A DNA stretch of 17,049 nt from the IMG/VR virus record IMGVR_UViG_2585427751_000001, one strand, 5' to 3'. The position numbers were made by a program. Position 1 is the stretch's first letter. The number at the start of each line of letters is the position of its first letter. Origin of the DNA: a virus. Taxonomy: Duplodnaviria > Heunggongvirae > Uroviricota > Caudoviricetes. Positions 1-6,000 of this stretch are shown here, piece by piece.

Positions 1-3000
1 AAGTGAATTCAAACAGGGTTCTGGCGTCGTTCTCGTACTGTTTTCCCCAGGCCAGCGCCTTAGCATTAACTTCCGGAGCCACACCGGTGCAAACCTCAGC
101 CAGCAGGGTGTGGAAGTAGGACATTTTCATGTCAGGCCACTTCTCTCCTGAGCGGGGCTTTGCTATCACGTTGTGAACTTCTGAAGCGGTGATGACGCCG
201 AGCCGTAATTTGTGCCATGCATCATCCCCCTGTTCGACAGCTCTCACGTCGATCCCGGTACGCTGCAGGATAATGTCCGGTGTCATGCTGCCACCTTCTG
301 CTCAGTGGCTTTCTGTTTCAGGAATCCAAGAGCTTTCACTGCTTCGGCCTGTGTCAGTTCTGACGATGCTCGAATGTCGCGGCGAAATATCTGGGAACAG
401 AGCGGCAATAAGTCGTCATCCCATGTTTTATCCAGGGCGATCAGCAGAGTGTTAATCTCCTGCATGGTTTCATCGTTAACCGGGGTGATGTCGCGTTCCG
501 GCTGACGTTCTGTAGTATATGCAGTATTTTCGACAATACGCTCGGCTTCATCCTTGTCATAGATGCCAGCAAATCCGAAGGCCAGGCGAGCACACTGAAT
601 CATGGCTTTGTGCCGTAACATCCGTTTGGGATGCGACTGCCACGGTCCGGTGATTTCTCTGCCTTCGCGGGTTTTGAATGGTGCGCGGCGACATTCATCC
701 ATCCACTCGGTAACGCAGATCGGGTGATTGCGATCTTTGCGGTAAATCCGGCATGTACAGGACTCATTGTCCTGCTCAAAGTCCATGCCATCAAACTGCT
801 GGTTTTCATTGATAATGCGGGACCAGCCATCAACGCCAACCACCGGAACGATGCCGTTCTGCTTGTCAGGGAAGGCGTAAATTTCTTTCGTCCAGGGATT
901 AAGGCCGTACTGGTTGGCGACGATCAACAATGCGATAAATTGCGCATCGCTGGCATCACCTTTAAATGCCGTCTGGCGAAGAGTGGTGATTAGTTCCTGT
1001 GGGTCGACAGAATCCATGCCGACACGTTCAGCCAGCTTCCCTGCCAGCGTTGCGAGTGCTGTACTCATCCGTTTTATACCTCTGAATCAATATTAATTTG
1101 GTGACGGGCGATGGTTTCAGCCATGTAGCGGATGTGTTCTGCCATGCGTTCCTGAAAATCGACATCGTCATCAAATGCACGGGAAATAGCTTTTTTGCTG
1201 GCCCCGTGACGTTGCAGATTATCGATGCATAGCGATTCAAACAGGTGTTGGGGCAGGCCTTTTTCCATATCGTCTGCCAGTTCTGCCTCTTTCTCTTCAC
1301 GGGCGATCTGCTGGTAGTGACGCGCCCAGCTCTGAGCCTCAAGACGATCCTGAATGTAATAAGCGTTCATGGCTGAACTCCTGAAATAGCTGTGAAAATA
1401 TCGCCCGCGAAATGCCGGGCTGATTAGGAAAACAGGAAAGGGGGGTTAGTGATTCAGGCCGTTACCGCGTCCGTCGAGAAAAACTTCTACGAGCAAATCA
1501 CGGGTATAAGTGCGCTCGATGCCGCGATGCAGATAAAGCCGCCCGCGTAAATTAGCTGATGCAGTCCAGGTACCATCTTTGTGTTTGACCAGCATTCCTG
1601 GCATGACCGCGCCGCGATTAACGGTCTGTGTTCCGTAATGTTGATGAACCATAAAAACTCCTGCCCGTAAGCTGGGCTGCTGAACATATAGAGACTTCTG
1701 CGCGTATTCAGGCGGTGGATGGCCGCCGGTTGTCATAACTAAGCCGCCTCGTTGAAGCGACTGAGGTATGAAATGTTGAGTTAATTTCAGCTGGTCACAC
1801 CGACGTTCACGCGTCCGTTTCACCCCTCGCACTCCCCGAAGCCTGCTGAAATTCAAACTGCGGATCTAAGCGGTCATCGCAACGGTGAATCAGGTGGTTG
1901 CCGTATCGTTGTGTTGTTGCGATATGGTGATAATAGCCATTGCTATTGGGGGGGGTATCAATACTTATTGCTATTGACTGATGTGTTTTGATATTAAATG
2001 TTTGATAGCAAAAAGAATTAATTTTGTGACTTGCATCGCATAGCGATAACTGAAGCAGGGATGTGGTGGTTTTTTGAGCGGTGTGTGATGAGGGGAGGGG
2101 ACAAAAGAAAACCCGGCACGGTGGCCGGGTTATTAATTAAATTAGTCAGTTTTTTCTACTGTAACATAGAGGCAGCATTCAGCATCTTTTCGTAATATGA
2201 ACGCATGTCTTCTTTGCTATATGCGTTGATAAGATTATCAGCGTGTTTTTCCAGTAGATTTAGCTGCTGTTTTGCTGACTTTTCTTGTGCTGTCGTTTCA
2301 GCGGCAAAAATTACAAATGAATCAATATTTGAATTGTATAATTCGTAGGCTTTAGTAATTGTTAAAACACTTATCGCAGCTTCACCCATTTGTTTTTTTA
2401 TATTTTCAGAACGAAAATCTAATGTTTCTGTAAGATGGTATTTGCCATTTTTTAACAAAAAATCTGCAACTAACCCTTCTTCATTACTAATTGGATAATT
2501 AGCTACGATTTTATGTTGGGAAAGATCTTCAAAATACTTACTGAAAATTCCATGTTGTATAAAGGTGGATTTTAATTCAGAAAAAACCTTTTTTTTCAAC
2601 TGTTTATGTGGCTGTTTTTGTGGGTTTACTAACCGATTCATTAGATCAGTAACTTTAGCTTCGTAATCTTCGTTGGCTTGAAGAGTGAACATGCCAAATG
2701 ACGATAACGATAATGCTCCCTTAAAAAGACAAGGAAGAAGTTCAGCATTGTTGATTTTTTGTGACAAATCAAAAAGCGAGGTCGAAAGATCCTCTAAGTA
2801 ATCTAAGGTAAGATCTTTGTCAATCGCTTTAAGTTTTGAAACTGAATTGAGCATACGTACGTCTATGTCAGAGTCATGGTAAACGATCAAACCAACGTTA
2901 ATCGTTTCACCTTTCTCTAAGTTCGGTGTAACTCTGATTAAGCTGTATTTGAAAGTTTTCAAGATGTTATCTCCAGTCTTATGGCATTTAGCCTATCGAT

Positions 3001-6000
3001 TCGCTCCTCGCTGTCCCACCACTTCAAAAAATACTCCTTATGCATTGGTGGCATCCATGCTTCAGGCATAGAGTTAAGTATATCAGATATAGCCTCAACT
3101 CCAATTTTTTCAATTTTGTCAAGGACAGATAATGCGCACTTTCTCAGATCATCAGTGTCGCCAATGAATTGTTTAGCAATCGTCCAGTTTGTTGTTGTAC
3201 TGGAGTCTGTTGGTAGTATATGAGGGGTATTTCGTGGCCAGCCTATAACAAAAGAGCTTAGACTAAAATCGAATGTTTTAACTATAACATTGCCTCGGGT
3301 GTTTTCCATGTATAAGTAGTTGTTGAGGTGTCTGTCAATGTTATATACAAACTGATCAAATGCATAAATTGCCCAGAGTTGCTTCTTTAAGGATTCAGAA
3401 GCATTTGAGAGCAAATTTATCCATTGAGGACTATTGAGACCAGATTTCCAGGCTGAAAACTCTATGCGAGAGCCAAAAACATACTCCCCATTAGCAATAC
3501 ACTTGAGAATTTTGCACACAGGTGTAGCGATGCCGCATTTTTCAGCTAAATTTGTGCAAAACCATTCCGCTGCCGGTACTTGAGTTGGGTTTTGTACAGG
3601 AAAAGGTGGGGTGGAGCGCATGCTTTTAACTGCATATTCCATTTCATCAGTGGCAATAGCGAAACCAGAAAGGTGTGCTGTGCCTAAGCTTGAAGGTGTA
3701 TATTCATGAAATTCTAATTCAAACAAACTTCCTTGCTCTGGTTTCACTTCATCAGTGTTTGACTCTTGTTCTTTCGTCATCAACTTTTTTCCCCAAATCG
3801 AAGACATGCGGACCTCTTAAATTTGAACAACATCATAATGATTAGCTAATCCGCTACCCATGCTTCCTATACGTCTGCGGCATGCTCCCAATAACCTTAC
3901 CGAAGATGAACACCCGGTTCATCTCGTCTTTCTCGATCGGGTCCCACGGTGAGTAGCTCTTGTTATCAGAGATAACCAGCAGCTTATCCTTCATCATTTG
4001 CAGACGCTTTACATGGGCTGTGTCGTCGTACAGAAACGCATAGATACCATCACCGTCGAAAGATTTAACCGTGATATCAACGAACAGCAGATCACCTGGT
4101 TCGATCGTTCCTGACATGCTGTCACCACGCACGTTAATGATGCGGATATTTTCCGCCTTCCTGCCATCGAACATGTGACGAGCATCGTCAAACGAGTACT
4201 CAACCGAGCGTAGAACTTCTACAAACTCACGGTTGATTACACCCGGCCCGGCACTGACTTCTATATCAAGAACGTCAATTTTGAAGTATTTGGAATGGCT
4301 GACAGCAGGCTTCCCTGATTGTTGACCGTCATTTCTCATCGGGCCTATGCCTGATGAGAGCCATTCTGTTCGAACACCCAATGCATTAGCTATTTCAACA
4401 ATTTTTGTTGAGCCGCGCGCGTTGCCGCTTGTCAGTCTCCAGATTGTGGGTTGAGCTACGCCAGACGCCTTTGCAAGAGCGCCTTGAGACATTCCAGATT
4501 GTTCCATCGCTAGGTTTAAGCGATCAGCAAGAGTTTCTTTTTTCATAAGTTTTAATTTATACGCTTGCGTATTGATGGTCAAAACACGTTTTGCTATTGC
4601 TTGGATTAATACGCATTGCTATTATTCATTCATTGCAATACCAATAGGAATTGATAATGACAAATCAAACCATTCAACTCGCAATCAGTATTACAGGTAG
4701 TCAAAAACGACTGGCAGATCTATGCGGTGTAGCCCAACCCACTGTTTGGCGTTGGCTACACGGTGGCGGAATTGATGCCCGCTATGTAATGAAAATTGTC
4801 TCAGCCACTGGTGGAAAGATTAAACCAGCAGATATTCGTCCCGACCTCGCACCATTGTTTAACGCGAGTAATTCTGCCGCCTAAACTGCGGCGTTAACTG
4901 ATAAGGCAATGACTATGCAACCACTTACATACCAACAGACTAGCGGATTTATCCCGACTGCGGTGATAAATCGTTCTCAAATAAAACAGGTGCCAGGCCA
5001 CGAAAAAATCCGTGATGCCATCCGCGCCTGGTCGGCTGTAGATAATCAGGATGTCGTTGCCGCACTCATTGTGAATGAGTATCGAGCACAGGGCGGCGGC
5101 ACTATCGATTTTTCTGATGATGTCAGTCGTGCACGCCAGAAGCTGTTCCGCTTTCTCGATAACAAATTCGATTCTGAAAAATACCGAAATAACGTGCGTG
5201 AACTGACTCCAGCAATTCTGGCAGTACTACCGCTGAAATATCGCGGCCACCTGGTTGAGCAGGATAGCTTCCTGGCTCAGCTGGCTGAAATGGAAAAGGA
5301 ACTCAGTGAGGCAAAACAGGCTGTCATTCTCAACGCACCACGCCACCAGAAACTGAAGGAGATGAGTGAAGGCATTGTGTCGATGTTTCGTGTGGACCCG
5401 GATTTGGCTGGTCCACTGATGGCGATGGTCACCACCATGCTGGGGGCAATATGACAGGTTCAGAAATGGCGAAAGCCGGTCTGCGCGAACAGAACCGACT
5501 TTCAGGTGCAAATCGTAACACACTCATTGCGGGAGGAATTATGGCAAACACTGCTGAGATATTCAATTTTCCAGTGCCGGATGTGGCACAAAAGGAGCCG
5601 CGCGTGGCAGATCTCGATGATGGTTATACGCGCATTGCAAATGAGTTGCTGGAAGCTGTAATGCTGGCCGGATTAACACAGCACCAGCTTCTGGTCTTCC
5701 TGGCTGTCATGCGCAAAACATATGGCTTTAATAAAAAACTGGATTGGGTGAGCAACGAGCAACTTTCCGAGTTAACCGGGATATTGCCGCACAAGTGTTC
5801 TGCTGCAAAAAGCGTTCTGGTAAAGCGTGGGATTTTTATTCAGAGTGGGCGGAATATCGGCATTAATAATGTGGTCAGTGAATGGTCAACATTACCCGAA
5901 TCAGGTAAGAAAAATAAAGTTTACCTGAAAGAGGTAAATTTACCTGAATCAGGTAAGAAAAGTTTACCCAAATCAGGTAAAGGCGTTTACCCGAATCAGG

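Follow-up and report, generated by a model that had tools for sequence, protein, structure and literature searches.

What does a mosaic lambdoid prophage of Escherichia coli carry in the place where lambda has rexA-rexB? The question is raised by virus record IMGVR_UViG_2585427751_000001, a stretch of 17,049 nucleotides (nt) that is called the window here. Two AT-rich genes, A and B, lie in it directly behind the gene of the cI-type repressor. An earlier note on this DNA had read them as a HipA-like kinase with a coupled partner, and as a candidate new system matching none known by name. The kinase and its partner were borne out; the novelty was not. The pair is of the type listed as PADLOC candidate PDC-M66, validated as the anti-phage system DS-6 and named HipAD, and HipAD itself occupies the same slot in Escherichia phage PhiR5_1. 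Judged by its sequence, the cassette is a remote subfamily of this already named and validated type and not a new kind of system. We consider it quite probable that it is a divergent HipAD member, that is, a prophage-borne, two-gene, kinase-based anti-phage system resembling a toxin–antitoxin pair, placed in the cargo slot between cI and the terminator with its neighboring left-operator (OL)-like sites.

A compact kinase and a two-domain partner

The cassette consists of the following elements, all on the minus strand:

2959..3807, minus strand: gene A, open reading frame of 282 residues (ATG at 3807); atypical protein kinase, compact and of HipA/CtkA type
Gene A, residues K61, D158, H160, N163 and D180 (282-residue numbering): predicted catalytic set
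2156..2962, minus strand: gene B, open reading frame of 268 residues with a TTG start; HipD-like putative antitoxin or regulator
Gene B, residues 1–112: DUF3037 domain; residues 116–121: flexible linker; residues ~125–268: α/β domain, probably of restriction-endonuclease-like fold
2959..2962, minus strand: TTGA junction, in which the TTG start of B overlaps the TGA stop of A

The two reading frames, their lengths, their strand and the overlap are as the earlier note had read them, and the overlap implies translational coupling. Both genes are conserved and are not chance open reading frames. The homologues of A fall into 47 clusters and those of B into 44, in each case reaching approximately 30% identity. 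A followed by B, adjacent or overlapping, was found in 13/13 related loci with room downstream, down to 28–30% identity.

RefSeq starts gene A at an internal ATG at 3780, which gives a protein of 273 residues; the 282-residue form is plausible because its MSxxWG N-terminus is kept in several homologues. Positions in the shorter form are converted to the longer one by adding 9. Whichever start is used, a disordered stretch of ~17 residues is predicted at the N-terminus, and the kinase core of the predicted model begins near residue 20 of the 273-residue form. In the Pfam scan, A narrowly passed the HipA_2 model (28.7 bits, gathering score 27) and stayed under the threshold for HipA_C. In the 282-residue numbering the loop NIDRH begins at residue 156 and supplies D158, H160 and N163. 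FDFS begins at residue 179, so that D180 follows D158 by 22 residues, exactly the motif pair and spacing that had been noticed at first reading. Across 27 aligned homologues, with identities as low as 32%, the lysine of the AVK strand, the NxDRHxxN loop and the aspartate of FDF are invariant (K52, N147, D149, R150, N154 and D171 in the 273-residue numbering). The Pfam match, the predicted fold and these invariant residues together place A in the HipA/CtkA fold class, as a compact atypical kinase of Ser/Thr type whose predicted catalytic set is complete and invariant. No significant match to A or B was found in the PDB by sequence or profile search.

The pair differs from canonical HipBA and HipBST. 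A lacks the N-terminal domains of HipA and has 273–282 residues, compared to ~440 for HipA. There is no HipB-type helix-turn-helix (HTH) antitoxin and no HipS, and the Pfam scan gave no match to the HipA N-terminal or HipB families. The partner lies downstream and has an unrelated architecture of DUF3037 plus an α/β domain; the gene upstream of A is the phage repressor.

For B, the match to Pfam DUF3037 (38.5 bits, gathering score 22.6), found in 27/27 members of the B family, substantiates the DUF3037-type partner that had been suspected from its N-terminus. The predicted structure, with a predicted local distance difference test (pLDDT) score of 85, shows two domains joined by the flexible linker. 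The probable nuclease-like fold of the C-terminal half was unforeseen in the earlier note, and in no member of the B or HipD family did the C-terminal domain match a Pfam family. Residues 150–182 are near-invariant within the close family. The invariant residues of the C-terminal domain are H150, K151, D/E167, K171, H176, E179 and D182, none of which is common to HipD. The conserved D/E167, K171, E179 and D182 sit on strands β2 and β3, in a pattern that is not the canonical PD...(D/E)xK. When the C-terminal domain was used as the sole query in an exhaustive search, 280 cluster representatives at 50% identity were retrieved. Nearly all of them measure 265–300 residues and carry the domain at the same position, which marks it as a dedicated companion of DUF3037.

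One metagenomic protein of 541 residues (P0301) appeared to join the kinase, DUF3037 and the C-terminal domain in a single chain. We did not accept it as a natural fusion because its ~85-residue linker resembles out-of-frame translation; a frameshift or an error in gene calling is the probable cause.

The C-terminal domain of B, probably restriction-endonuclease-like, could itself be the effector and degrade nucleic acid of the phage or the host, with A as its sensor or regulator. We hold such a kinase-controlled nuclease to be very improbable. Like the addiction module and the exclusion kinase that are taken up below, it accounts for less of the evidence than does a divergent HipAD system.

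Relation to HipAD, DS-6 and PDC-M66

DefensePredictor (Science 2026) led to the validation of DS-6, a HipA-family kinase with a DUF3037/DUF1829 protein, as an anti-phage system; its D139A kinase mutant loses defence, and AlphaFold3 predicts that its A and B proteins interact (PMC13092281). According to the same paper, the system was discovered independently and named HipAD by Brenes & Laub 2025, Cell Host Microbe 33:1004 (PMC13092281). A HipA/DUF3037 module adjoining Retron-Sda1 corresponds to PDC-M66 and defends as a stand-alone unit; deletion of its kinase abolishes defence, and deletion of its DUF3037 gene is toxic (PMC12548924). The HipAD proteins are the HipA toxin XSB41283, identical to WP_000389051.1, and the HipD antitoxin XSB41282, identical to WP_000210934.1, found in phage PhiR5_1 and in an ECOR strain. 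DS-6 in turn matches the PDC-M66 models, with E=6e-15 for DS-6A against PDC-M66A and E=4e-16 for DS-6B against PDC-M66B.

Pairwise BLASTP of the window proteins to DS-6A and DS-6B was barely informative, and profile methods were therefore needed. Window B matched the PDC-M66B model with E=2.6e-8 over profile positions 1–204 of 281. The A family aligned to DS-6A with an hhalign value of 95.9% (E=6e-9), spanning the N-lobe to the catalytic loop. In this alignment D139 of DS-6A, the aspartate of NADR, corresponds to D158 in NIDRH of A. Over the DUF3037 domain, the B family aligned to the 33-member HipD family at 96.1%. With greater diversity in the B profile the value was 97.0–97.2% (E ~4–8e-11, down to 3.7e-11), and the alignment reached B residue ~187, extending into β1–β3 of the C-terminal domain. 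The likeness extends to the arrangement. In HipAD/DS-6, as in the window, a short HipA_2-type kinase gene overlaps a downstream DUF3037 gene of ~270 residues, and both cassettes have a low GC content; the window pair belongs to a different sequence family. It likewise has the two-protein architecture of the module next to Retron-Sda1 and differs from it in having no associated retron.

Several observations weigh against this assignment. A matches PDC-M66A weakly (E=1.6e-3), and another candidate family, PDC-M03A, scores higher. The HipA_2 score of A lies just over its threshold (28.7 vs. 27). The similarity is remote: A is ~21–28% identical to DS-6A over ~100–117 residues, and B aligns only to residue ~187. 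When each C-terminal domain is taken alone, that of B and that of HipD give an hhalign value of 0.7%, and the invariant E179 of B aligns with the invariant K186 of HipD. Finally, we infer co-transcription with cI, the interaction of A with B, the trigger and the kinase target alike.

Single-sequence searches from the window family do not find the HipAD family, nor do those in the other direction succeed, and DS-6A scores 258 bits against HipA_2 where A scores 28.7 bits, which together argue for a separate, remote subfamily. In the part of the DefensePredictor supplement covered here, the window's own proteins are not among the entries. The type of system is thus a characterized and named one, as the earlier note had allowed it might prove to be, and this very divergent subfamily is not. 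Kinase-dependent protection against phage and neutralization of toxicity by the partner are known from the relatives, and by analogy they may hold for the window pair.

The dissimilarity of the C-terminal domains and the E179/K186 mismatch indicate that the regulatory or sensing part may work differently in the two subfamilies. The B family may even form a mechanistically distinct system of kinase plus nuclease-like protein, in which B's own invariant residues make up a site that cleaves or senses nucleic acid, either executing defence or detecting the phage and releasing the kinase. We regard this as doubtful; if it were true, it would offer the first clue to the way in which HipAD-type systems detect infection.

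The window pair adds a second subfamily to HipAD. Both subfamilies have retained the kinase core and the DUF3037 domain, but not the polar residues of the C-terminal domain. A comparison could separate the phage-sensing from the kinase-inhibiting parts. PADLOC and Pfam models detect the window subfamily only marginally, and it is likely under-counted in censuses of defence systems.

The slot between the repressor and the terminator

The elements that frame the cassette are:

3854..4582, minus strand: cI-type immunity repressor (HTH plus Peptidase_S24), in the same orientation as A and immediately upstream
2101..2131, minus strand: intrinsic terminator closing the cI-A-B unit, from a terminator scan; hairpin at 2131-2110, AACCCGGCCACCGTGCCGGGTT then TTCTTTTGT
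1924..1976, no strand assigned: OL-like operators, two copies of a 25-nt repeat ending ATTGCTATTG (repeat family D1, four copies)
4575..4624, no strand assigned: right-operator (OR)-like sites, two more D1 copies between cI and the divergent cro-like gene
4651-4884, plus strand: cro-like gene, divergent from cI

The repressor matches Pfam Peptidase_S24 (E=1.5e-18), HTH_3 and Phage_CI_repr; its RefSeq start is at 4546. The terminator has an 8-bp GC-rich stem located 25 nt past the stop of B and followed by TTCTTTTGT. The four D1 repeats are arranged as OL and OR are in lambdoid immunity regions. Pfam, the terminator scan and the repeat search thus agree with the earlier placement of the cassette after cI and before a terminator and OL-like operators. 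The minus strand has a promoter-like sequence, TTGACC-17-TAAATT, at 4582-4554. Between cI and A nothing convincing as a promoter or terminator was found, and a single terminator follows B; A and B would therefore be read through from the cI transcript.

A further promoter-like site lies within A (3308-3281, minus strand; TGGAAA-16-TATAGT with an upstream TG, ~320 nt before B). It was given no weight because the scan returned 4 sites compared to 6.5 in shuffled sequence. In lambda, the promoter PLIT feeds rexB, and a promoter inside A, if real, could likewise give extra B. Between the OL-like operators and kil (1687-1924, minus strand), neither the matching E. coli genome (L001) nor the sibling phages have an annotated or evident gene for an N-like antiterminator, and no known RNA element was found at the Rfam gathering threshold.

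The position recalls lambda rexA-rexB and sieB-type genes: the cassette lies downstream of cI, inside the immunity region and ahead of the terminator and OL, and it presumably protects the lysogen. In sequence and domains there is no relationship; scans of the window with Pfam, NCBIfam and PADLOC found no Rex family, and the effector in the window is a predicted kinase. RexB has been described as a membrane ion channel.

The base composition of the cassette sets it apart from its surroundings. The GC content is 0.40 in A and 0.34 in B, compared to 0.47 in cI and in the whole window. At third codon positions (GC3) it is 0.36 in A and 0.30 in B, compared to 0.51 in cI and 0.56 in bet. The AT-richness seen at first reading is thus real. 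Low GC and GC3, with the genomic context, make it well supported that the pair was acquired horizontally, as a moron in the slot equivalent to that of rexAB.

The allelic nature of the slot became apparent from PhiR5_1. A tblastn search with DS-6A gave 100% identity in this phage, where GenBank labels the pair HipA toxin and HipD antitoxin. Its gene order is cI, HipA, HipD, (terminator), Kil, Gam, Bet, Exo, with HipA and HipD overlapping and with the same stem-loop terminator behind hipD. The window and PhiR5_1 are 98.5% identical across ren-P-O-cII (window 7500-4914) and 91% identical across the C-terminal half of cI (window 4410-3855). Identity resumes at the common terminator hairpin and is 94.7% from window position 2137 to 1. 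The two differ only in the cassette and in the immunity-specific part (cI N-terminus, OR and cro). PhiR5_1 matches the window up to the cI stop and again from the terminator, which means that the window holds an allelic replacement.

Other relatives fill the slot differently. With near-identical flanks and the same cI, phage PhiR30_1 (L002; L numbers are our locus handles) holds PDC-M63A/B, a DUF6932 protein and a 310-residue protein, and 4A7 (L003) holds PDC-M11A/B, a 353-residue protein and an ASCH protein. From these comparisons, the interval from the cI stop to the common terminator (window 2138-3854) is a site at which this group of lambdoid coliphages exchanges defence cassettes, bounded precisely by the cI stop and the common terminator. 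In Scandinavium manionii (L015, 2449-4911), a repressor 80% identical to the window cI precedes an A that is 44% and a B that is 37% identical to ours; different alleles of the same system have evidently been swapped into the same slot.

The exact cassette occurs in 24/5426 complete E. coli genomes at 99.6–100% identity, labeled 'hypothetical protein' and 'DUF3037 domain-containing protein'. It was absent from the INPHARED phage records by DNA search and tblastn. The pair stands directly downstream of a phage repressor and in the same orientation in 10 related loci (L001, L009–L016 and PhiR5_1/L019), or 11 counting the window. Several unrelated kinds of repressor are represented: that of the window, one resembling lambda cI, an HTH protein of 131 residues and an HTH-S24 protein of 369 residues. 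As exceptions, a Vibrio prophage has the pair after its replication genes, and alphaproteobacterial chromosomes (L007, L017) have it beside housekeeping genes, away from phage genes.

Such plain chromosomal contexts are also what a HipBA-like toxin–antitoxin module for addiction or persistence could show, one that secures prophage stability or dormancy and has no specific anti-phage role. The HipA-type fold and catalytic set of A fit this explanation, as does the toxicity that follows loss of the DUF3037 partner in a relative (PMC12548924). We nevertheless find it rather improbable. The relatives were validated specifically as anti-phage defence, and the sibling phages hold other defence candidates in the slot. 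A HipB-like HTH antitoxin and the HipA N-terminal domain are missing, and exclusion genes classically lie in a locus of this sort, expressed from the repressor operon. Profiles, predicted fold, catalytic conservation and genomic context instead lend good support to the suggestion in the earlier note that the pair is a likely lysogen-expressed exclusion or toxin system.

Proposed action in the lysogen and further cargo

A divergent HipAD system in this slot might act as follows. In the lysogen, A and B would be read through from the cI transcript, starting at PRM or PRE, like lambda rexAB. B would bind A and keep it inactive. Infection by another phage would lift this inhibition, a step in which the nuclease-like and possibly nucleic-acid-binding C-terminal domain of B may take part. 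A would then phosphorylate an essential host or phage target, halting growth or phage development and so protecting the lysogen population. The restraint of A by B, its release on infection and the phosphorylation of a target are modeled on the relatives and on HipA and HipT. Translation factors have precedent as targets, namely GltX for HipA and TrpS for HipT.

Exclusion could also proceed without killing the cell. A would then act directly by phosphorylation, either on a protein of the superinfecting phage or on a host factor needed by that phage, and B would be a specificity or sensor subunit and not an antitoxin. The Stk kinase, from the immunity region of phage 933W, excludes HK97, and the window likewise has an active-looking kinase in that position. 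The second domain of B, large and well conserved, would moreover be superfluous in a simple antitoxin. We still think a non-abortive exclusion kinase unlikely: the toxicity of partner deletion in a relative points to a growth-arresting toxin, and the precedents in the HipA family act on host translation. With the system type already named, the value of the locus as a divergent HipAD member lies in the architecture of the hotspot, in how poorly current models detect this subfamily and in the partner's C-terminal domain, which is divergent and nuclease-like.

Other parts of the window carry accessory genes. A second low-GC island (GC ~0.33–0.36) follows ren at 7538-8283 on the minus strand. It encodes an Arc/ribbon-helix-helix protein (7936-8283; Pfam Arc, E=6e-20) with a one-base overlap to a 132-residue protein (7538-7936) that had no Pfam or PADLOC match; the two could be a small toxin–antitoxin or regulatory pair. 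At the position of this island, the E. coli genome NZ_CP062876 (L001) has a 500-residue DUF4041 protein. The accessory cargo on the plus strand includes a Bro-N plus P22_AR_C antirepressor-like protein (8501-9250) and, in the nin-like region, a DNA methylase (12624-13673; N6_N4_Mtase, E=2e-44). Three tRNA genes, Met-type CAT, Arg-TCG and Arg-TCT, lie at 13723-14239 on the plus strand and are followed by the small RNA STnc100 (139 bits). A DUF1737 protein is encoded at 14461-14922, and a small open reading frame with a TonB_C domain lies at 15252-15593, in another low-GC stretch.

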